A DNA stretch of 20,477 nucleotides from Candidatus Hodarchaeota archaeon (GTDB lineage: Archaea; Asgardarchaeota; Heimdallarchaeia; Hodarchaeales; Hodarchaeaceae): positions 1-20,477 of the forward strand of contig JAEOTM010000116.1 in assembly GCA_016839815.1 (NCBI GenBank), written 5' to 3'. The notes below the pieces were generated by a model that saw nothing but the letters and a program-made list of their open reading frames with translations, ran no database searches and was not told the DNA's origin. Both the position numbers and the translations under genes were made by a program. Each line of letters begins with the position of its first letter. Positions within the stretch are counted from its first letter, which is position 1. This document shows, in pieces, positions 737 through 16,851 of the stretch.

Positions 737-1750
737 TTAAATCCCTTGGATTGTAGATCTAATGTTTTCTATGTCCATCTGTTGAGCTGCTATATTTAAT
801 AATCTTCCTGCCTCTTTGGGTATTGACTCAAATGATTTAGCTGATTTTATGACCTTTAAGAGGCTATCGAATTTTTTGGTATAATCTAAATTGTTTATGA
901 GATAAGAATTCAGAAAATCTAAGCTCCAACAGATATCATAAATGGGGAATAAACCCAGATAGACACGCTTTGAATAATCAAAATCAATGTTTTTTGCTGG
1001 TTCGAAAAATCGTTTGTATTCTTGGTAAAAAAAGTTTTCATAATCAACCAGTAGCTTCATATCAAAGGGAAAGTATATGATTTCATCTATTGTGTCACCA
1101 ATGTATGCGGTTTCCCAGTCAATCAACCAAATTTTCCCTGTTTCATCCTGTATACAATTATCATTTAGATTACCATGAATTTGGCTCTTTAATCCATGTT
1201 GAAACCCATGATTTTTTGTTTGAATAAAATCCCAAATCCCATCTAGAGACTGTTTTAATCCTCTTTCAAGAGTTATATTAATTAAATAACTGTATTTCTG
1301 AAGGGAGAACTCAACAAGGGATTTTAAATGATTAAATGACTCTTCTAGTAAGGTAAATCCATCTGGTATAATTTGTAAATCCAAAGTATGCAGTTCAGAG
1401 AGATTCTTAGCAAGTTGTGACAAATTCTCTTTTTTCGTAAAATCAGGAGGTTTTCCAATAATGAAATCAAATACTACTGCCCCATTCTTAAAAATTTCAT
1501 CATCAACATAAAGAGCTGATGGTATAAAGGTTAAACCTTTAGTAATCAAATCATTTCTAATTCTAGCTTCATTTTTTACTTTATTGCTCCTTTTTGGATA
1601 CATACATATCTTTATACCATATACATGGTCGTTAGAAGCGACCTTGTAAAATTTTGAACCTATTCCTTTGTTAATATATTCAATTTCTTTCACTAAAATA
1701 TCTTTAGAATTGAAGAGTTCTGTAATTTTTGTATTATCAATATCGGACAT
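737..1750 (-). CDS. Aminoglycoside phosphotransferase / choline-ethanolamine kinase-fold protein with atypical catalytic loop (HGN)
   Basis: N-lobe GIGSKFYKV..YGIKI..NEARI; FDFIIG; LAKNLSELH; Brenner-like motif IHGNLNDNCI; LIDWETAYIGD. SD-like AGGT upstream. Confidence 0.8.
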   Translation of the reverse strand: MSDIDNTKITELFNSKDILVKEIEYINKGIGSKFYKVASNDHVYGIKICMYPKRSNKVKNEARIRNDLITKGLTFIPSALYVDDEIFKNGAVVFDFIIGKPPDFTKKENLSQLAKNLSELHTLDLQIIPDGFTLLEESFNHLKSLVEFSLQKYSYLINITLERGLKQSLDGIWDFIQTKNHGFQHGLKSQIHGNLNDNCIQDETGKIWLIDWETAYIGDTIDEIIYFPFDMKLLVDYENFFYQEYKRFFEPAKNIDFDYSKRVYLGLFPIYDICWSLDFLNSYLINNLDYTKKFDSLLKVIKSAKSFESIPKEAGRLLNIAAQQMDIENIRSTIQGI

Positions 1751-1877
1751 AGAAATACCTTTTTCCAGTTATAATGAGTCATAACGATTAATCAATTTTT
1801 GTGCTAATGCATAATTTCCCAGTTTGTAATTATCGATTATAACATAAGATCTTTTGATTCAAATTATTCTTCATTTA

Positions 1878-2570
1878 TTAAAGCTTGAACTTAAATGGAA
1901 CTAACATCGGAGTACGGGATTTATATACTAGGTAAGTCTCTCCAAAACGAATTTCTAATTCTTTTTCCTCATAAATTTTAAGAAAAAATATCCAAACAGG
2001 CAACACGAGAATTACTACCCATATAAGAAACCATGATGATTGGAAAAATAATCCCAGTGAAAATAGGAAAAGAACAATTGCTAAAACCATTGGATTGCGT
2101 GTTCTAGTATAAAACCAGTCATTTACCAGATATCTACTACTGATGATTAGTGCAAATGGGGCTCCTAATCCTCTGAGTGCTAAGTTTAGTATCGTAATGA
2201 ACACAAAAATTCCATTCAATAAAACAAGAAATAGACTAATTTCTGTTGGAAGTGTAATGATAAGCCCTCTCCAGTCTTTATAGGTCAAAATGGCTCGAAT
2301 AATGCTGGATCCCAAGCAAAGCATAATTGAAGTGTGAATAATCATATTGACCCAATAAGTATGTCCAGCTGATGGGTATTTATTCAAGGTTAATCGTCCC
2401 AGTGTTGAAATTGGAACAACTAGGAGAGCTCCCACGATGATTATAGCTAGGTCCAGTGAGAATTCAAAATGCTGATCAAAAAACCACTTCCAAACCAATA
2501 AGATAGTAGTGAATCCCATTATGCGAATTATGAGTGAATAAATGAATCTAGGTGATTTCACTTGTATCAC
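1878..2570 (-). CDS. ICMT/PEMT-family integral membrane SAM-dependent methyltransferase (start uncertain: GTG2570 or ATG2519)
   Basis: Multiple TM helices; GLGAP..YLVNDWFYTRTRNPM and EEKELEIRFGETYLVYKSRTPMLVP match the family signature RNPM...EE..L...FG..Y..Y...P. Confidence 0.85.
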   Translation of the reverse strand: MIQVKSPRFIYSLIIRIMGFTTILLVWKWFFDQHFEFSLDLAIIIVGALLVVPISTLGRLTLNKYPSAGHTYWVNMIIHTSIMLCLGSSIIRAILTYKDWRGLIITLPTEISLFLVLLNGIFVFITILNLALRGLGAPFALIISSRYLVNDWFYTRTRNPMVLAIVLFLFSLGLFFQSSWFLIWVVILVLPVWIFFLKIYEEKELEIRFGETYLVYKSRTPMLVPFKFKL

Positions 2571-2619
2571 TTGAGAAAGTATTTATTCTTCCTTTAGGTT
2601 TTTTTGGTCGAAACTTAGG

Positions 2620-3591
2620 ATGTTCTCCAGTTCAAATCCCTTACTTAATCTTGAAAACAACCCTCCATTCAAGATTTTTGATTCACATGTCCATATCTGG
2701 GGTCATAGATATTTAAACGAGTATCTTGGGTACATCAAAAGATTCGGAGTTGATCGAATCTTAGGAATAGGTGGTCAAGAATTAAAGAGTAAATTAGAGT
2801 CTAGAGGGCTTGCAGAGAACATTATCTTTTGTTATTATCTTTCTTCGTACGATTTTTTAAAATTCAAGGTTAATAATCTTCAAAAATCGATCGATGAGGC
2901 TCATGCAAAGGAAATTCGTGTGTTAAAAATCTTTGTTGGACCAATGTTTCAATTCTTTACCAGAAATAAGAATCCCTTCAGAATCAACCATACTAGACTA
3001 GAATCTGTTTATTCAAAAATAGAAGATTATGATATGACTATATTAATACATGTTGCAGATCCAGATATTTCGTATAAGAAGAAATACAAAAATAAAAAGA
3101 AATACGGGTCAAAAGAAGATCGTATTAATGATTTTTCTGATCTATTAGGCAATTTCCCCAAGATTACAATGATTTCCGCACATTTTGGTTGCCTACCAGA
3201 AAATCTAACAAGATTAGGTGAGTTATTAGATCGTCATCCCCAATTATTCATAGATACTGCCTCAACTCGGTGGATGATACGTGAGCTTGGGAAAAATGCT
3301 ACCAAATCTAAAGAATGGCTTGAAAATTATCAAGATCGTATACTATTTGGCTCTGATCTCGGTAATTTTGAATTCAATCTGAAATTCTTCATTAGTAAGC
3401 AACGTCGCAAATATTATTGGGGTAGTCGTTACTGGTCCCAACGTTTATTCTGGGAAACAGCTCACCAAGCGCCTCTGCCATTTAAAGATAAGGATAATTC
3501 GGAATGGACACAAATTAAAGGATTGAATTTAACTCGCTCAACTTTAGAGAAAATTTATTATAAGAATGCCCAAGGTCTATTGGAGGATTGA
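2620..3591 (+). CDS. Amidohydrolase-superfamily metal-dependent hydrolase (Amidohydro_2-like)
   Basis: FDSHVH (HxH), IHVADP, SAHFG, FIDTAS, RILFGSD and C-terminal KIYYKNA..LL. Confidence 0.85.
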   Translation: MFSSSNPLLNLENNPPFKIFDSHVHIWGHRYLNEYLGYIKRFGVDRILGIGGQELKSKLESRGLAENIIFCYYLSSYDFLKFKVNNLQKSIDEAHAKEIRVLKIFVGPMFQFFTRNKNPFRINHTRLESVYSKIEDYDMTILIHVADPDISYKKKYKNKKKYGSKEDRINDFSDLLGNFPKITMISAHFGCLPENLTRLGELLDRHPQLFIDTASTRWMIRELGKNATKSKEWLENYQDRILFGSDLGNFEFNLKFFISKQRRKYYWGSRYWSQRLFWETAHQAPLPFKDKDNSEWTQIKGLNLTRSTLEKIYYKNAQGLLED

Positions 3592-3624
3592 TTCTCCAAA
3601 AGGATGAATTTTGGTGGAAAACTC

Positions 3625-4281
3625 ATGGATCTAGATACACTTCTCCGAAAAATCTTCTTTATTGTGTTTTTCTATGTTATTTACTATAATCTGGTATTTA
3701 TTATCTTTAATCCTGATATCTTCCAGGATATTGTATACATTGTTTATCTCAGCATTTTATACCTAGCAGGAATTATTGATACATTCTTACGACCTTTAGA
3801 AAAAGAACAAAAGGAAGAAGGACATTACGTCAAGTTTATAGTGTTTTTATTTTTAGTAAATCCTTTTCTTTTTGTGCTAGCAATTGAAGAGAATAATATA
3901 TTATTTACTACTCGTATAGAGATTCTATCTTGGGTTGGTTTGGTTATTTACTTACTTGCAGCACTTGTTGTTGTAATGGCAAGGGTAAATTTAGGAAAAC
4001 AGGCTACTGGTATCCTTGTAGTTAGGGAAGATCATGAATTAATTACTTCAGGATTGTACAAATTTCTAAGACATCCCATGTATTCAGGTAGTTTACTCGG
4101 AATTATTGGATTTGCGTTTGTAAGTCAATCAATAGTTATCTCTTTGATATCATTCATTCTTTACTTTTGGATATTTAAAGAACGATTAAAATATGAGGAG
4201 AGTCTTCTTGAGGAAGCCTTTGGAGAGAAATACTTGAAGTATAAGGAGTCATCATATCGATTAATACCCTTCTTATACTAA
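3625..4281 (+). CDS. Isoprenylcysteine carboxyl methyltransferase (ICMT/Ste14) family membrane methyltransferase (alternative start 3604)
   Basis: VREDHELITSGLYKFLRHPMYSG and EESLLEEAFGEKYLKYKESSYRLIPFLY; about 5-6 TM helices. GGTGG SD-like site precedes ATG3625. Confidence 0.88.
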   Translation: MDLDTLLRKIFFIVFFYVIYYNLVFIIFNPDIFQDIVYIVYLSILYLAGIIDTFLRPLEKEQKEEGHYVKFIVFLFLVNPFLFVLAIEENNILFTTRIEILSWVGLVIYLLAALVVVMARVNLGKQATGILVVREDHELITSGLYKFLRHPMYSGSLLGIIGFAFVSQSIVISLISFILYFWIFKERLKYEESLLEEAFGEKYLKYKESSYRLIPFLY

Positions 4282-4319
4282 TCTGGGTGTACCTGCCCTC
4301 TAAAAGATAAGTCAAGTAT

Positions 4320-5879
4320 TTACTTTGATTTCAACCGTTCCTCAATTTCTCTTGATGTTCTAGTTATTGATAAGCCCCCCAGTGCGGTACACTTTAATTC
4401 GTGAGCAATACTTCGTCCAACTTGATCCATTGCTTCAATTACCTCATCGAGAGGAATAACCACATCATAATCAGCTAATGCCATATTTGCACAGGCTAAT
4501 GCATTACTGGCAGCCATAACATTTTTACCTAAACATGGTACTTCTACTCTATTTGCTACGGGATCACAAACCATCCCAAAACTATTTTGCAGAGCCATTG
4601 AGGCCGCGTCAATAACCTGTTTGATAGTTCCATTTTTCAGAGTTACTAGTCCTGCAGCTGCCATACCAGAGGCTGATCCGCATTCGGCTTGGCATCCTCC
4701 AATTTCGGCTGAAAAAGTTCCCTTTTGAGAAATAAAAACTCCTATCATACCTGCTGCAAACATTGCTTGAGTTAATTCAGTATTGGATAGATTCATTACA
4801 CTTGTTGCCCCTATTAATGCTCCTGGAATAGTACCACACGCACCAGCAGTTGGAGCTGCAACAATAACTCCCAATGAACTTTTAATTTCCATCATTGCTG
4901 TAATACATACAATTATTTGATTTAGAATACCACCATCAAGTAGATTTTTGCGTTCAAGTTGAGTTTTGAACTTTCCTGATTGAAAACCAAGGATACGATC
5001 TGCGAAATTTGTCCCTTTTATTCCAGTCTGTATCGATTCTCGCATAATGCTTATTATCTTCTTCATTTTGGTGAAAACTTCTTCAAACGAAATATTACCT
5101 CGCATGCTTTCATAGTGAACTGCTAATTTCCACAAATCCCATTGTTTGTCTTTATTATACTGCAACATATCTTCGCAAGTAGTAAATGGAACTTTCACAT
5201 CATTACTAGAAAGGATTGGTAAAACAGGATCAATCATTTTGATTATAGCTTTAGGAAATTTTTGTTTTAGAGTTGTTAGGGACTCTTTTTCCAAGAAATG
5301 TTTTCCTTTGATTTCAATAAACTTCTGTTTTGTTTCTATAGTGCCTATAGAATCGCTAAGAAATTCTTTACTCTGTAAAAATTCTAAAAGATTATTCCCT
5401 TCGGTATAGATCAGAGTTTCATAACAATCTCCAATCATTGAAACTTCCATATGATCTATTTCAATGATCTCTATCATTCCCCCACCAGTAGATATAGCTA
5501 CTATTTCGTGCAGTTCATTCTCGTTTTTAAGAGTCAATTTATAGGTATTGGGATGCTTTACCTCTATATTATTGATTTTTATTTGGATTTCAAGACCTGC
5601 TTCCTTTACAGCATCTTTATATTCTGGTAATCTCTCGTCATCGGCCTCCCATCCTAGAAATCCTGCAAACAGGCCCATATCAGATCCTTGACTCTCATGT
5701 GTTGTCGCTAGGGAGCCTTTTGGATCGAATTCTACTAATACCTCTCTTATATTACCATCCATCAAATCCCGTGCCATTCTTCCTATCCGAACAGAGGCTG
5801 CACTGTGAGAGCTAGATGGACCTCTCATTATCGGGCCCAAAACATCATTAAAAATACTTGGATATTTATTTCCACCCAT
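4320..5879 (-). CDS. sdaA: Fe-S-dependent L-serine dehydratase, fused beta (SdaAB-like) and alpha (SdaAA-like) subunits
   Basis: Beta part: GPIMRGPSSSHSAA, GSLATTH..QGSD, HPNT, STGGG. Alpha part: IVAAPTAGACG, GGCQAECG, GMVCDPVANRVEVPC (Fe-S Cys ligands), IPLDEVI..M..VG, CTALGGL. Confidence 0.93.
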   Translation of the reverse strand: MGGNKYPSIFNDVLGPIMRGPSSSHSAASVRIGRMARDLMDGNIREVLVEFDPKGSLATTHESQGSDMGLFAGFLGWEADDERLPEYKDAVKEAGLEIQIKINNIEVKHPNTYKLTLKNENELHEIVAISTGGGMIEIIEIDHMEVSMIGDCYETLIYTEGNNLLEFLQSKEFLSDSIGTIETKQKFIEIKGKHFLEKESLTTLKQKFPKAIIKMIDPVLPILSSNDVKVPFTTCEDMLQYNKDKQWDLWKLAVHYESMRGNISFEEVFTKMKKIISIMRESIQTGIKGTNFADRILGFQSGKFKTQLERKNLLDGGILNQIIVCITAMMEIKSSLGVIVAAPTAGACGTIPGALIGATSVMNLSNTELTQAMFAAGMIGVFISQKGTFSAEIGGCQAECGSASGMAAAGLVTLKNGTIKQVIDAASMALQNSFGMVCDPVANRVEVPCLGKNVMAASNALACANMALADYDVVIPLDEVIEAMDQVGRSIAHELKCTALGGLSITRTSREIEERLKSK

Positions 5880-8778: not shown

Positions 8779-11706
8779 TTATCTCCGATATTTCTTCTGC
8801 CTTTTCCAAATAAATAGCAAAGCTATTACCAGTATGAGTTCAAAGATTATGGCTGGAAGATTAATCTGCAGAGTTCTCAAAAAATCGAAAAAATCCTCGG
8901 TTTTACGTATTCTAAAAGTTAGATCTGATTCATCTTGAACGTTGAAACCTAATGGATTAGTAGCAACTACACGGATGAGGTAGGAATTGCCTTGCATTTC
9001 GGTGGCATTAATTTTCCATTTGTATCGAATTGAATTTTCTCCTTCCCATGAAATAAGATGTCTAACATCTGAGCTAATAAATATCCACGAATCTCCTTCA
9101 TTCGAGGAATAATAAATATCATAATGTAATTCTTGATTGAATGTATCATTTGCAGCAGATATTTCAATAGTATAATCATCTGTAATCCTCTCTCCACCAT
9201 TTGGTGACAAGATAACTGGAGGTATTATATGATTAGGGGATTGAGCTGGATTATCTTCATAATTCCCATCAATAGGGTCGGTTGAATTAGGAAACCAAAA
9301 ATTTTGAGAGAAAATATTGCTCAGTCCTTGATCAATACCTTGTTTCATACTTGATGAAGAGAAGAGATTATTATCTGCAAAGTCATTATTCTGAATAATA
9401 TTCGCTTCGCTGTACGAATTTAAGAATAATCCCCAATAACGATTTTCAAACAAAATGTTCTGTTCAATTACACATTCAGATGATGTAGACATGGGTAAAC
9501 CGTTTATCATGACCCCATAAACATTGTCGTGTAGAAAATTGTGAAATATGCTAATTAAATGGCATTGTTGCAGAAATATTCCAGCATGCATAAACCCATA
9601 AATGTTGTTATTCTTAATGTGACTGCGAGACGATGATACTAGGGATAATCCATTCTGATCTTCATTCTTTCCGATTAGAGTATTATTGTTGATAATAATA
9701 TTTGTACTATTTATTACTTGAATTGTTGATCTAGAATCTCTAATTACGTTATTCCTGATAATAATATTCCGAGTATGATTTAAGTATATCCCAATCTCTG
9801 CTCCAATTAATGTACAATTCTGAATAACAACATTGAGTGTTGTATTGACAATCTCAATTAATAGTGATGAAAAAGGTGAGCGCGGCGGTGGCCGTCTACT
9901 TACTATTGAAAAGCCTTCTATAATATATGGATCTCCCTCTGTTCCATTTCCTGGTAAACCTACCATATTTGCATAAGAAATAAATTCTTGGTCGCTTGGG
10001 AATTGTAGAATAACGTTTGTAAACTCTATAATTGAATACTCTTTTGTCGCATAAACATTTTGGAGGTGTGATAACCTTTCTCCATTAAAGTCATACAAAT
10101 CATACAAAGATACTTCTCGTATTTCAAAAGATAGATTGCGATATAGAGTGGAAAGAGTTGTTAAGGTAAATGGAATCGATACATTATGGAATCCTTGAGC
10201 TAGGTCGACTGAGATTTCCATATTTTCCTCAAACTGGTAATTTGTTCTACTACTGAGGTTGATAACGAGTTTGTAGAATCCTAGTTGTATTACATTTAAT
10301 TCTACAATAATAATGAGTTCATCATAATCCCCGCCCTTGATCACACTACTGTTCAGGAGATAATCAAAGAACCGACCGGTAAGAACAGCTTTAGTAGGAT
10401 TAAACTCGTTATATATATATACACGAGTAGTATATGCGTTAAAAATCTCGTATATATCTTCTCCCTCTCCATCCTCAACCAGAATTTGGATAATTGTAAA
10501 ATTGGTTGCCGTCTGGAATGAATGAATCCCTCTAATAGTAAAATTGAAAGATACATTGTAAAGACCAACAAGGTAACTTTGAGTAATTGTTTCTGTATTA
10601 GTAAAGACGTAAACGTCAGAATTTGATTTTACGTGAACAGAAATTGAATAGTTACCTGATACTGATGAGTTAACTTCTATTTGCACTATTAGTTCGTTGA
10701 AAAGTCCATCGGAATCCGTATCATTGCCAAAATCCAGATATTTTCCTGTTACAATAAGATTAGGGACGTCAAATTCAGTAAAGTGATATTCTCGAGTAGT
10801 ATAGCTAGGTGAGGTTTCATCAATTAATGCATTGTTTGAATTGTACAGTTCAATTATCTGAATATTAAAAGTAATATTGATGAGTTCATAGTATCTCACA
10901 GCTGGATTGTACAGAAGCGGAATGCTGTGTTTGCCTTCAGAAAATTCCATACTGTTATTTCCCCACTTTAGAAATGGAAAATTTTCGGAATTACTTCGCA
11001 GAAGAGCTCTTAACTTATATGTACCAGCTTTTGTGATGTTGATTTCTACAAAGATCACTAAATTGTTGAATTTATTATTTCCGTCTGTATCATTTCCGTT
11101 ATCTGCAAATAAGTGGGTAAGAAAGGCACTAGGTGGATCACAATCAGAGTAACTATATAATTCGGTTGTGTACCAATCAATGGCCTTCCAAAACACATAG
11201 GCCGCTACAGTGAGGGAGTAAATACTGACCTCTGTAATGACGTAGGTAGTATTAATTTTACGAGAATAGACATTCCTGATTGGAAAAGTGAAAGAGATAT
11301 TTTGAATTCCTGATGAGAATTCATCAAAGACTTCGTAGTACTCCAGATATTCATAGCTAGTATGATTATCCTCTAATCGTAAACGAAATTCAAAACTACC
11401 CGCCTCTAGGATATCAAATTCCGCAGTTATCTGTATAAAATTGTATAAACCATCAAGATCTGTATCAATTCCCTGATCAGAGAACACTCCCATAGCGGTA
11501 ACTAAATATGTAGTCTTGGGTGAAAGATTTGACGGAAGAGAATTATTGTGTAAGACTGTGGTGGGAGAATTTCTTTCTTCTTTTTCGTCTGAAGGAATAA
11601 TTTGATGTTCTGAATATTTATTAACTAAAGGAGCCAAAGATGTTGAAAAAAATCCAAGATTGATGAGAATTATGAGTAAGATGGCTTTTGACTGGATATT
11701 TTTCAT
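8779..11706 (-). CDS. Large membrane-anchored surface glycoprotein: four beta-rich repeats, NosD/PbH1 right-handed beta-helix, Ig-like domain, C-terminal TM
   Basis: Signal peptide; repeated G(N/I)DTDxDG..N.L motifs; GNGTEGDPYIIE followed by GIYL/NIIIRNN-type beta-helix repeats; SPNGGE Ig-like domain; TM then WKRQKKYRR; more than 25 N-x-S/T sequons. Confidence 0.88.
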   Translation of the reverse strand: MKNIQSKAILLIILINLGFFSTSLAPLVNKYSEHQIIPSDEKEERNSPTTVLHNNSLPSNLSPKTTYLVTAMGVFSDQGIDTDLDGLYNFIQITAEFDILEAGSFEFRLRLEDNHTSYEYLEYYEVFDEFSSGIQNISFTFPIRNVYSRKINTTYVITEVSIYSLTVAAYVFWKAIDWYTTELYSYSDCDPPSAFLTHLFADNGNDTDGNNKFNNLVIFVEINITKAGTYKLRALLRSNSENFPFLKWGNNSMEFSEGKHSIPLLYNPAVRYYELINITFNIQIIELYNSNNALIDETSPSYTTREYHFTEFDVPNLIVTGKYLDFGNDTDSDGLFNELIVQIEVNSSVSGNYSISVHVKSNSDVYVFTNTETITQSYLVGLYNVSFNFTIRGIHSFQTATNFTIIQILVEDGEGEDIYEIFNAYTTRVYIYNEFNPTKAVLTGRFFDYLLNSSVIKGGDYDELIIIVELNVIQLGFYKLVINLSSRTNYQFEENMEISVDLAQGFHNVSIPFTLTTLSTLYRNLSFEIREVSLYDLYDFNGERLSHLQNVYATKEYSIIEFTNVILQFPSDQEFISYANMVGLPGNGTEGDPYIIEGFSIVSRRPPPRSPFSSLLIEIVNTTLNVVIQNCTLIGAEIGIYLNHTRNIIIRNNVIRDSRSTIQVINSTNIIINNNTLIGKNEDQNGLSLVSSSRSHIKNNNIYGFMHAGIFLQQCHLISIFHNFLHDNVYGVMINGLPMSTSSECVIEQNILFENRYWGLFLNSYSEANIIQNNDFADNNLFSSSSMKQGIDQGLSNIFSQNFWFPNSTDPIDGNYEDNPAQSPNHIIPPVILSPNGGERITDDYTIEISAANDTFNQELHYDIYYSSNEGDSWIFISSDVRHLISWEGENSIRYKWKINATEMQGNSYLIRVVATNPLGFNVQDESDLTFRIRKTEDFFDFLRTLQINLPAIIFELILVIALLFIWKRQKKYRR
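10018..11490 (-). repeat. Four tandem ~123-aa protein repeats, three with DxDxDG-type motifs
   Basis: Repeat heads: GIDTDLDGLYNFI (~11472), GNDTDGNNKFNNL (~11097), GNDTDSDGLFNEL (~10728), degenerate GGDYDEL (~10336). Repeat tails: YTTELYSYSDC, YTTREYHFTEF, YTTRVYIYNEF, YATKEYSIIEF. Confidence 0.85.
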
Positions 11707-12793: not shown

Positions 12794-13402
12794 ATGACAC
12801 AAACCTACATATCCAGAACTGAAAACTCTGATGACATCTGGATTAAACGACGAGGAAGTAGGAATCGGGGAATATTTTTTGGGATTTTAGGATTCCTTTT
12901 TGAGATTATTTTTGTTTATATATGGGTTTCACTGAGATCTAGCGATCCTGAGTTACTCTACCTAATATTCACATTATACAACACTGAAGTAACTCCATTC
13001 CTATTCATATTCTTTGTCTTTGGAGCGGGTTGTTTTCTGATTACTCTTCGAGAATTCGGATGGGAAGAGTCTATTTTAATCAAGCAAAACCTTGTGCAAA
13101 ATACCCCCGGTATACGGAAACAATTTCGATTTTTCTCATGGATTCGAGCAGTAGATATTCCTAAAGAGCGAATTATCGCTCTTCGATTACATACAATCTT
13201 CATGGACCAACTAGGATTAAATAAATCCTATCATATTGAAGTAGATTACCAAGAAACAACAAATTCTCCAGTAACAACTCTTGTTTTATTCAGAGATTAC
13301 AAAGATACTCTAACTGAACCCGCAGCAAGCCTTGTAAACAAAATCCATGATATCTTAGCATTACCAGAAGAGATAGAGAAAACCGAATCAAAACCTGTCT
13401 AA
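12794..13402 (+). CDS. Hypothetical membrane protein: two TM helices plus soluble beta-rich C-terminal domain ending in a helix (PH-like?)
   Basis: TM1 GIFFGILGFLFEIIFVYIWV, TM2 PFLFIFFVFGAGCFLITL; then strands (IPKERIIALRL, YHIEVDY) and a terminal helix (AASLVNKIHDIL). Confidence 0.75.
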   Translation: MTQTYISRTENSDDIWIKRRGSRNRGIFFGILGFLFEIIFVYIWVSLRSSDPELLYLIFTLYNTEVTPFLFIFFVFGAGCFLITLREFGWEESILIKQNLVQNTPGIRKQFRFFSWIRAVDIPKERIIALRLHTIFMDQLGLNKSYHIEVDYQETTNSPVTTLVLFRDYKDTLTEPAASLVNKIHDILALPEEIEKTESKPV

Positions 13403-13441: not shown

Positions 13442-14917
13442 TTAGAAGTATTCAGACGGATCTCGCATTCCACGTCTCTTGAAATCTTTTCGGGCAAGGA
13501 CCTTAAATTCATCACGTAACTCCGCTGGGAGTCGATTGGGTTTCTTAAAACCTTCAATTGAATCTTTAGCATAAGAATAGATAAAAGATCGGAAAGCAAC
13601 CTTCATTGGCATAGTAACTACACTGTATGGCAGAGATCCGAGAAACACAAATATAACGGCAAAAACAAGACCATAAGCTAATTCCTGTGTGGCGGCAAAT
13701 CCTAAACTAAATCCAACTCCAAGCCATAGTAATGAATTGACTATTGCGAAGATAAAGGTAGTTAATCCAAACCCAGTTTCGCCAACTAGGACATCGACAA
13801 GCGCTCCCCAAGTAGTTTTGGCTGAATCTTTAATAGAATCACTGAGACCTTTTTTGTTCTGTACAATACTGACCAACGTGAAGTAATTCAAAAACATCCA
13901 GATCGCACCAAGAATTGAAATGATAATCGATGCTAATGCTGCAAAGATTAAACCACCAATAGCTGCACCTGCATTTCCTCGCCCTCGCGAGCGAGTTGCT
14001 TGTCCACGGGTAGCTCCTGTGAAAATCTGCATAATTATCTTCACAGAGGCCATAGCGAACGCAAATTTAAGGATAACTGGAAAAACTTGACGTACATCTT
14101 TCATAGCTGATCCTAGGTCAGGATCTAATCCTCGGTACCAATCACTTGCGTAAGATATTACTCCAGCCGAGAGACTATAGTAAACACCGAGATATACAAT
14201 TAAATAGAAATACTCAAAGATTATGGCAAGAATGAGTCCTGGATAGGATAACTCTGTCTCACCCATAGCATTAGTCACTTCAAACATGGAGTATATATTG
14301 AGGAATCCAAAGATCATGAAGAATCCTGTTACAATTGAATAGAGGCCCAGTATAAGTGGCATAGCAAGGACTGCTTTCTCATCAAGCACAAGTTGTGCTG
14401 AAAACTCAACAAACTTTCCACTCCGAGCAATTACTCTGAACTTCCAGATTACGAAGGCTAAGAGCAGAACTCCGAAACCAGCAATGAACATTCCCATCAT
14501 TGACGCACCTATTTGATCCTCTGGCATAAGAATTCCCCCACCAATCATAAGGACCCCAATGATTATCATTAGGACAGGGAAAAAGATGGATACAAATATT
14601 GTGACCTGCTTAGCTACTTTACTCATGATCCATAGGATAACATATGCGAGAATTAAGGTTAGAACTAAAAACACAACAATAAATACGATGAGTAGGGGTA
14701 GAAAATCCATTGTAATTGGGACTAATAGTTCGAACGCTTCAGAAAGTTGGGCTAAAACCTCTTCATTCTCGGGATCTGTAGTAAAATCAGTAATAAAACT
14801 GTAGAACGAGACTGCCCCAAAAGAGTACAAGGCAACCGCAACTAACAAATATAACCATGTGGGCGTATTTGAAAAGTTTGTTTTAATATTGGGCTTTTTA
14901 TAATTTGATACACTCAT
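13442..14917 (-). CDS. Polytopic membrane protein, choline-transporter-like (CTL/SLC44/Pns1-like; related to DUF6159)
   Basis: About 10 hydrophobic segments. CTL-like landmarks: WKFRVIARSGKFVEFSAQLV..AVLAMP, SAGVISYASDWYRG, FLNYFTLVSIVQNKKGLSDSIKDSAKTTWG, LVGETGFG. Confidence 0.6.
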   Translation of the reverse strand: MSVSNYKKPNIKTNFSNTPTWLYLLVAVALYSFGAVSFYSFITDFTTDPENEEVLAQLSEAFELLVPITMDFLPLLIVFIVVFLVLTLILAYVILWIMSKVAKQVTIFVSIFFPVLMIIIGVLMIGGGILMPEDQIGASMMGMFIAGFGVLLLAFVIWKFRVIARSGKFVEFSAQLVLDEKAVLAMPLILGLYSIVTGFFMIFGFLNIYSMFEVTNAMGETELSYPGLILAIIFEYFYLIVYLGVYYSLSAGVISYASDWYRGLDPDLGSAMKDVRQVFPVILKFAFAMASVKIIMQIFTGATRGQATRSRGRGNAGAAIGGLIFAALASIIISILGAIWMFLNYFTLVSIVQNKKGLSDSIKDSAKTTWGALVDVLVGETGFGLTTFIFAIVNSLLWLGVGFSLGFAATQELAYGLVFAVIFVFLGSLPYSVVTMPMKVAFRSFIYSYAKDSIEGFKKPNRLPAELRDEFKVLARKDFKRRGMRDPSEYF

Positions 14918-15157: not shown

Positions 15158-15397
15158 CTATTTACTAACAATAACCATGGTTAGAGTTGATCTAACTCCT
15201 TTAGCCTGACGTATTTGATTTATAACCATATCTTTTAAATTCTTCATGGTATCGGATGAGACCTTACAGACGAGGTCATATACACCATAGACAACGTAGG
15301 CCTGATCCACCTTAATTTCTTCTTTTAAGAACCTGAGGACTTCTTCTTCCTCGCCTATCTCAGCATTGATCATTACGAACGCAGTGGGACGACTCAT
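15158..15397 (-). CDS. Stand-alone Lrp/AsnC ligand-binding (RAM) domain protein without HTH
   Basis: 79 aa: TAFVMINAEIGEEEEV..AYVVYGVYDLVCKV..IRQAKGVRSTLTMVI is the classic archaeal demi-FFRP pattern. Confidence 0.93.
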   Translation of the reverse strand: MSRPTAFVMINAEIGEEEEVLRFLKEEIKVDQAYVVYGVYDLVCKVSSDTMKNLKDMVINQIRQAKGVRSTLTMVIVSK

Positions 15398-15567: not shown

Positions 15568-16851
15568 ATGTCTGATTTACGCCATAAACTAGAGATTCCA
15601 GAAGAGAATCTCAAAGAAATTAATGATTTTTTACTGAATCCTGATAATCCACTCATAAATGATCTCTTACAAGTCATAGATAAATATGGAGGAGTGGATG
15701 AAATAAATAAGAAAGCTAATGAGGCTGGCAAGTTAGAGAATTTGCTAACTCGACTTCAAAAGAAACAACCTGATTATGTTCAAGACTTGGAATGGTTAAC
15801 GGAAAAGCGTGATAAGGAAGCCTTTATTAGTCTATCAGAATATCGTAGACGGGTTTTGGGAGACAAATTATCAGAAATTCAATTTAATGACGATTTTGCT
15901 GTTACTCTTGAACTTTCCGCATGTCAGTACTTTCCTTTCTTCATCGAAGGAGCTAATTTAGCCTTAGAAAGGGAAACGTTGTTACCAGGACGCATTATCC
16001 GTGTACGAAAAATGAAGGAGCAAGAAAATGACGGCGATCTTTTAGCTATGTCTGCAGCAATGAAAATCATTGGTGCTTCTTACGTTGAAACACTTGATAC
16101 AAAAGGAACTGCTCCTGGAGAGGATGGTGCCCCAGTTAATGTCCATTTAGGAGGTCCACCGACTATTACCGGTTATTTCGGAGGAGTAGGTCAACCTAAT
16201 GATTTCGCCTTAAAATGGATTGATGAATACCTTTACTACTATACGAATTACGGTGTTCAACAGGTCTTAAACATTAATCTTGGTACAATCCTCCTGGGCT
16301 ATTTCATCCATAAATTGGGAATCAATAATGAATTCAAGATTTCTGTCTTTGTAGGGAATGATAATCCGTTCTCTTGTTTCTGGACGTTACTTGCAGCTAA
16401 GCTGTTTGCTCGAGAAGATGGTACTAGCCCCTTGATTGGATTTAATCTTTCTAACTCTGTAAACAACCAGACACTTGAACTAAGTGCCTATATTCGAGAT
16501 AATTTTGGTTTTGAAGATGTAGTCAGATTAGAGCATCATATCACTGAGACATGGAAGAGTATTGTTCGTCAACCATATGACCGTAGAGCAGAATTGGTTG
16601 AACTCGCCCCCAATGTCAAAAACATCAGTGCAAAACATGAAGGAGGGAATGTCGATGTGGAATCACAGCGTGATTATCCAACTGATATTCTCGATTATTT
16701 CCGTGATAAATCAGAGATTATTAACGCAGGTCATTGGAACTTTTTAAAACAAAATTATTTCGATCGCTTGGATGCTGTCAACTCCACTGCCTATGCACTG
16801 ACAAAAAATGGATCAAGCTTCATCGCAGCTCGTCATCTTCATCATAGATAA
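15568..16851 (+). CDS. Uncharacterised soluble enzyme-like protein (427 aa)
   Basis: Long ORF with GGAG SD. Motif-like blocks: LELSACQYFP, PGRIIRVRKMKEQE, YVETLDTKGT, NVHLGGPPTITGYFGGVGQPN, KISVFVGNDN, GFNLSNSVN, RLEHHITE, SAKHEGG. No family recognised. Confidence 0.85.
   Translation: MSDLRHKLEIPEENLKEINDFLLNPDNPLINDLLQVIDKYGGVDEINKKANEAGKLENLLTRLQKKQPDYVQDLEWLTEKRDKEAFISLSEYRRRVLGDKLSEIQFNDDFAVTLELSACQYFPFFIEGANLALERETLLPGRIIRVRKMKEQENDGDLLAMSAAMKIIGASYVETLDTKGTAPGEDGAPVNVHLGGPPTITGYFGGVGQPNDFALKWIDEYLYYYTNYGVQQVLNINLGTILLGYFIHKLGINNEFKISVFVGNDNPFSCFWTLLAAKLFAREDGTSPLIGFNLSNSVNNQTLELSAYIRDNFGFEDVVRLEHHITETWKSIVRQPYDRRAELVELAPNVKNISAKHEGGNVDVESQRDYPTDILDYFRDKSEIINAGHWNFLKQNYFDRLDAVNSTAYALTKNGSSFIAARHLHHR

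Follow-up and report, generated by a model that had tools for sequence, protein, structure and literature searches.

The window analysed here is a stretch of 20,477 nucleotides on contig JAEOTM010000116.1 from a Candidatus Hodarchaeota archaeon. On the minus strand, positions 13442–14917 hold an open reading frame (ORF) that begins with ATG, encodes 491 amino acids plus a stop codon and resembles the eukaryotic choline transporter-like (CTL/SLC44/Pns1) proteins. The N-terminus is kept across 44 orthologs and the first transmembrane (TM) helix, M1, is nearly invariant. The annotated ATG start is therefore considered correct. Comparison with the ortholog in a second genome of the same genus (G058) gave a dN/dS of 0.036. 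Thus the ORF is a real gene under purifying selection and not a chance ORF. The gene is single-copy in the source genome as revealed by a genome scan, and the nearest proteins, which are 84–92% identical, come from MAGs of Hodarchaeales and Heimdallarchaeota. All landmarks named in the original prediction were recovered in place. They are the amphipathic RVIARSGKFVEFSAQLV segment (residues 161–177), the SAGVISYASDWY segment (250–261), the Arg/Gly loop ATRSRGRGN (307–315), FLNYF...S (342–365) and TWG (369–371).

The gene is convergent with an ORF at 12794–13402 (+), whose last base lies 40 bases from the stop codon of the CTL-like gene. This ORF encodes a predicted membrane protein of 202 amino acids that belongs to no Pfam or NCBIfam family and adjoins the CTL-like gene in three more genomes of the same genus and in no other Asgard family. 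On the other side, positions 15158–15397 (−) encode a stand-alone Lrp/AsnC ligand-binding (RAM) protein of 79 amino acids without a DNA-binding domain. The RAM gene stands between the CTL-like gene and an amino-acid gene cluster and is conserved in G058. The cluster, which includes homoserine dehydrogenase and aldehyde:ferredoxin oxidoreductase genes, is headed by the gene of a 427-amino acid protein without a family (15568–16851, +). This first gene shares 44 bases with the beginning of a class I/II aminotransferase gene and is also conserved in G058. No neighbour is conserved across 20 CTL-like loci from 10 Asgard families.

The protein was modelled with AlphaFold2 (pLDDT 78.4, pTM 0.76). 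All archaeal and bacterial structures of CTL-like and DUF6159 proteins used in this work are predicted models. The model contains ten TM helices, in line with the 491 amino acids and roughly ten TM segments that had been predicted, and three membrane-parallel amphipathic helices (AH1–AH3). Together they are predicted to surround a pseudo-threefold centre, which is the CTL-type fold. From the N-terminus, M1 (residues 18–47) is followed by a short acidic loop, M2–M4 (72–158) and AH1 (160–179). After AH1 come M5/M6, AH2 (268–277), M7/M8, AH3 (347–371), M9/M10 and a basic C-terminal tail. The helices of the model make up an N-terminal four-helix module, M1–M4 (residues 18–158; 14444–14866, −), which superposes on yeast Pns1 from residue 77, and a six-helix core, M5–M10 with AH2 and AH3 (residues 181–455; 13553–14377, −). 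The core is homologous to the DUF6159 family and fold-related to the sulfate permease CysZ. Since the modelled M1–M2 loop spans only about 24 amino acids (residues 48–71), there is no extracellular domain.

The amphipathic helices were delimited by the model together with conservation. AH1 (14381–14440, −) holds RVIARSGKFVEFSAQLV and is the first element that the CTL-like protein and DUF6159 have in common. It is directly followed by a (D/E)-K pair at residues 180–181 that is conserved throughout the superfamily. A conserved W-Y-R-G-x-D-P motif (260–266) stands just before AH2 (14087–14116, −). AH3 (13805–13879, −) carries K363-x-S365 and TWG, and Ser365 is invariant in both classes, the full-length Asgard proteins and DUF6159. 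At the end of M8 lies the conserved motif W-x-F-L-N-Y-F-T-L (residues 340–349; 13871–13900, −), which an HMM alignment places against the pocket stretch K491/N494/Y495/Q498 of human CTL1 (pocket residues from PMC13160678). The position of the pocket tyrosine (Y495 in CTL1, Y394 in Pns1) is taken by Phe342, and this phenylalanine is invariant in the 44 orthologs. The conserved pocket tyrosine on M8 is absent from the CTL-like protein; the neighbouring Asn344 is conserved. Across the superfamily, the strongest conservation is seen at polar residues on the amphipathic helices and at the M8 end.

Loop charges agree with a topology in which both termini are cytoplasmic (N-in/C-in). The cytoplasmic C-terminal tail (residues 456–491; 13445–13552, −) contains 11 lysines and arginines and is conserved among orthologs; it was modelled with low confidence. 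Also of low model confidence is the Arg-rich M7–M8 loop (residues 302–315; 13973–14014, −), of which residues 307–315 (13973–13999, −) form the Arg/Gly-rich part. By CTL topology this loop would face outward, contrary to the positive-inside rule.

Homology to the eukaryotic family was examined with profile searches. The Pfam model PF04515 (Choline_transpo) matches residues 145–452 over profile positions 3–324 of 326 with E = 6e-5. Since the score, 22.8 bits (24.7 bits in the genome scan), does not reach the gathering cutoff of 26.9, the protein is filed as a divergent superfamily member and not as a curated member of PF04515. PF04515 is matched by 33 of the 44 orthologs, the best at 3e-14, and other Asgard clades exceed the cutoff end to end with 33–54 bits (up to 53.6). 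Profile A2, built from 59 diverse full-length Asgard proteins, was searched against the PDB. It found yeast Pns1 with E = 7.4e-25, profile positions 8–403 aligning with Pns1 residues 75–486 from M1 onward, and human CTL1 with E = 6.5e-11. The hmmsearch suggested along with the original prediction thus gave a match below the cutoff for the protein itself (E = 6e-5) and, through the orthologs and A2, clear and collinear homology to eukaryotic CTL/Pns1 for its family. Profiles of three other full-length clades found Pns1 as well (24.8, 44.9 and 50.3 bits). Neither Pns1 nor CTL1 was found in the PDB by the Hodarchaeales-only profiles A1 and A6, no CTL was matched there by the DUF6159 profile A3, and the single CTL-like sequence returned nothing useful from an NCBIfam search or from phmmer against the PDB. 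Sequence comparison gives no sign that this Hodarchaeales clade is especially close to eukaryotes.

The suggested structural comparison likewise gave a match. When the predicted model was superposed on Pns1 as a rigid body, 404 of 422 Pns1 residues were aligned, M1–M4 included, versus 282 for a DUF6159 model that consists of the core only. Searched alone, M1–M4 (profile A8) found neither Pns1 nor CTL1, and its best match was a designed TM protein. The module carries no independent sequence signal and its homology therefore rests on collinearity and structural superposition. We conclude, with a probability of about 85%, that the gene encodes a true, though divergent, CTL/SLC44/Pns1 superfamily member with the complete eukaryotic-type architecture. 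The original reading, an intermediate or ancestral form and candidate eukaryotic signature transporter, is supported in part. Because the complete Pns1-type layout is already present, the protein does not count as an intermediate in architecture.

Pns1 of Saccharomyces cerevisiae (PDB 9F63, PF04515) is 11–14% identical to the archaeal protein. It begins with about 75 additional cytosolic amino acids and has the pocket tyrosine at the position of Phe342. Human CTL1/SLC44A1 (PDB 7WWB, 9QU3) is 10–12% identical. Its pocket residues are not conserved in the archaeal protein, which also lacks the extracellular domain of about 150 amino acids found in CTL1 (residues 63–213). In architecture the archaeal protein is nearer to Pns1 than to metazoan CTL1, neither of the former having an extracellular domain. 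Metazoan and plant CTLs possess the large M1–M2 extracellular domain and Pns1 does not (PMC13160678). Since Pns1 is also without it, the domain marks a subgroup rather than the family as a whole. Pns1 has no established function (PMC13160678).

DUF6159 (PF19656) comprises membrane proteins of about 290 amino acids from bacteria and Euryarchaeota, and no paper mentioning it was found in the searchable literature. These proteins have a homologous six-helix core with AH1–AH3, and unlike the archaeal CTL-like protein they lack M1–M4 and begin at about position 145 of the full-length profile. Asgard profiles match them over positions of about 145–435; the original prediction described DUF6159 proteins as matching mainly the C-terminal part. 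The motifs common to DUF6159 and the archaeal protein are (D/E)K after AH1, G-x-D-P, W...YF..P, K-x-S with its invariant serine, and LYxYA. PF19656 did not match the CTL-like protein of the window at E ≤ 10; some full-length Asgard proteins match both the PF04515 and DUF6159 models. The layout of the core is also like that of CysZ (PDB 3TX3, 6D9Z), which has no detectable sequence similarity and no M1–M4 and, according to the description in PMC13160678, is a hexamer whose helices in part span the membrane. The mitochondrial carriers of the SLC25 family (e.g. UCP1, PDB 8HBV) have the core layout in common with the CTL-like protein as well (PMC13160678).

Among 400 Asgard genomes, 140 carry a match, mostly an ORF of 460–510 amino acids, and 37 of the 85 genera are represented. 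Distribution within Asgard archaea is patchy, and none of the 135 genomes of one large Loki-class family (f20) has a match. A profile search of 1.84 billion representative sequences yielded 280 matches, the best 150 of which were examined. Among the matches listed, all named full-length proteins are from Asgard archaea (Hodarchaeales and Heimdall-, Loki-, Hermod-, Hel-, Njord- and Thorarchaeota), and no recognisable eukaryote occurs among the best 150 of 280. A word-indexed search with a broad alignment returned the same 59 Asgard proteins only. The family has diverged deeply within Asgard archaea, with a mean column identity of 16%, four major clades and at least 14 coded families. When genes extracted from Asgard genomes were placed in the core tree, they fell into all four clades. 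The CTL-like protein belongs to an ancient family that has diversified deeply and occurs across Asgard archaea.

The P0162 and P0090 clades at first looked unassigned. They have Heimdallarchaeial members at 35–43% identity, which rules them out as non-Asgard full-length forms. P0180 and P0190 sit on densely packed, prokaryote-style contigs. The small P0166 clade, which consists of seven full-length clusters and was not found in 161 Loki-class genomes, is left unassigned; at least one member is archaeal, since its contig carries an RNase P Rpp30 gene. One Heimdallarchaeial genome (G052) contains two deeply diverged CTL-like paralogs (C163 and C104).

Sampling outside Asgard archaea covered two phyla, Chloroflexota and Halobacteriota. 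Matches were present in 57 of 301 Chloroflexota genomes, the strong ones starting at profile position ≥131, and in 82 of 301 Halobacteriota genomes. All were of core length only. Full-length homologues widespread in bacteria had been named as an observation that would count against the original prediction; the 301 Chloroflexota genomes gave core-length matches only. Among the prokaryotes sampled, the complete ten-helix form occurs only in Asgard archaea, and bacteria and other archaea have only the six-helix core.

A core tree (LG+C20+F+G4, 58 rows × 312 columns, unrooted) was inferred from full-length Asgard-type and short forms. The two forms are split by a branch with 100/100 support that is present in all 200 bootstrap trees, and quick trees agree. 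All full-length clusters (66/66), the archaeal protein among them, lie on one side of this branch, with DUF6159 on the other. Being unrooted, the tree shows one change of architecture, not its direction. The ten-helix form looks like a six-helix core with an M1–M4 accretion common to Asgard archaea and eukaryotes. Tentatively, M1–M4 may have been added to a DUF6159-type core in Asgard archaea, and the ten-helix form may then have been inherited vertically by the first eukaryotes. If so, SLC44 would be an Asgard-derived eukaryotic signature membrane protein, and its original function, probably not choline transport, would be accessible in simpler prokaryotic relatives.

The missing sequence signal of M1–M4 by itself raises another history, in which the Asgard module arose independently of the eukaryotic one and a DUF6159-type core acquired its own N-terminal extension. 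TM helices carry little specific sequence signal, and other N- or C-terminal extensions exist in the family, giving forms of 544–709 amino acids among the matches listed. We consider independent origin improbable, because A2 is collinear with Pns1 from M1, because the superposition takes in M1–M4 (404 aligned residues against 282 for the core model), and because the position of all full-length clusters on one side of the branch fits a single accretion.

The patchy distribution, including the large Loki-class family without a match, could also point to acquisition of the Asgard genes from eukaryotes by horizontal transfer, or to eukaryotic contamination of the MAGs. This is very unlikely. Identity to Pns1 and CTL1 is only 10–14%, divergence within Asgard archaea is deep, and the members that match both PF04515 and DUF6159 form a bridge to the prokaryotic core family. 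Furthermore, the genes reside on archaeal contigs, including complete chromosomes, with dense prokaryote-style gene packing.

Loki-type relatives of 660–680 amino acids (P0124, P0139, P0126 and P0138) carry a C-terminal extension. In these four proteins the extension gives a second match to M1–M3 of the profile, which at about 0 bits is non-significant. This second match may reflect repetition of a module, tandem genes that were read as one, or noise.

SLC44/CTL has been treated as a eukaryotic family and has links to human disease and plant development. To our knowledge, few candidate eukaryotic signature proteins (ESPs) are membrane proteins of the CTL kind. The complete Pns1-type form across Asgard archaea makes the origin of the CTL family during eukaryogenesis testable. 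Precomputed PF04515 matches on Heimdall proteins are already in databases, and a preprint of October 2026 devotes a single line to a "CTL/PNS1-like" Asgard cluster; a structure-based ESP study does not mention an Asgard CTL-like cluster (PMC12962969). Homology of the Asgard proteins to CTL is itself no longer new. What is new beyond that single line is the anatomy, a DUF6159 core plus M1–M4, and the finding that, of the prokaryotes sampled, only Asgard archaea have all ten helices. By itself, the core is a family that is widespread in bacteria and archaea. Small prokaryotic relatives free of an extracellular domain make the function of the fold testable, and they should present fewer difficulties in expression, reconstitution and structure determination.

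What the protein does was considered in the light of its predicted architecture. M1–M4 would form a peripheral N-terminal module. The core would be pseudo-threefold and made of three hairpins (M5/6, M7/8 and M9/10), each following an amphipathic helix on the cytoplasmic face (AH1–AH3). With both termini inside, the resulting bowl would open outward. The most likely function, on which we would place even odds, is that of a facilitator or exchanger whose small solute, polar or charged and not necessarily choline, would bind at the pseudo-threefold centre. We lean toward transport because the core resembles CysZ and SLC25 and because conservation is highest at polar residues on the amphipathic helices and at the M8 end.

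Transport by eukaryotic CTLs is disputed (PMC13160678). With CTL1, Pns1 and CherI, Nel et al. 2026 observed no uptake of choline or ethanolamine, and they suggest that eukaryotic CTLs have a role other than transport (PMC13160678). They describe a hydrophobic groove with lipid- or sterol-like densities that is lined by most of the residues conserved in both CTL1 and Pns1; in their account the closed bowl fits no known transport mechanism, and they could not reconcile it with alternating access (PMC13160678). The archaeal protein might likewise be a lipid-interacting or regulatory membrane protein that, for example, senses or organises lipids through the conserved groove. The replacement of the one pocket tyrosine common to CTL1 and Pns1 by Phe342 would suit such a role. 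We regard it as doubtful, since the core layout is shared with a sulfate permease and with the SLC25 exchangers, and since the highest conservation in the superfamily lies in the polar residues named above and not in the lipid-facing groove. In addition, several cell-based studies cited in PMC13160678 report uptake of choline or ethanolamine by CTLs, and some Asgard copies are found among ion-transporter genes, which is weak evidence.

The family name, together with the activities reported for CTL1 and CTL2 in work cited in PMC13160678, would make the protein an importer of choline or ethanolamine that feeds phospholipid head-group metabolism. The window holds genes that could be read this way. 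A run at 737–5879 encodes a weak choline/ethanolamine-kinase-like protein (737–1750, 19 bits), two PEMT/ICMT-family methyltransferases (1878–2570 and 3604–4281), an amidohydrolase and L-serine dehydratase, and the kinase-like and methyltransferase genes lie 9–12 kb from the CTL-like gene. An ICMT/PEMT gene also neighbours one distant Asgard homolog. However, the source genome contains 14 copies of the PEMT family, the stronger copy in the window (3604–4281) matches isoprenylcysteine O-methyltransferase best (87.9 bits), the kinase match is sub-threshold and generic, and none of the 20 other CTL-like loci has PEMT/ICMT or kinase-like genes within 7 kb. A functional link between these genes and the CTL-like gene was rejected for these reasons and their presence is treated as chance. 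The CTL1 pocket residues are not conserved, and transport is disputed even for the eukaryotic proteins. An importer of this kind is highly improbable, and the reading as a facilitator or exchanger of a small solute is preferred.

Two distant Asgard loci have neighbours of their own. At L085 (contig of P0069) the CTL-like gene is beside an ICMT/PEMT methyltransferase, MgtE, a Na/Ca exchanger and MntP, and at L117 (contig of P0190) it is near an Rce1-like protease. Each neighbourhood is a single instance and not recurrent. Within the window, positions 8779–11706 (−) encode a protein of 975 amino acids with a NosD/right-handed beta-helix region.
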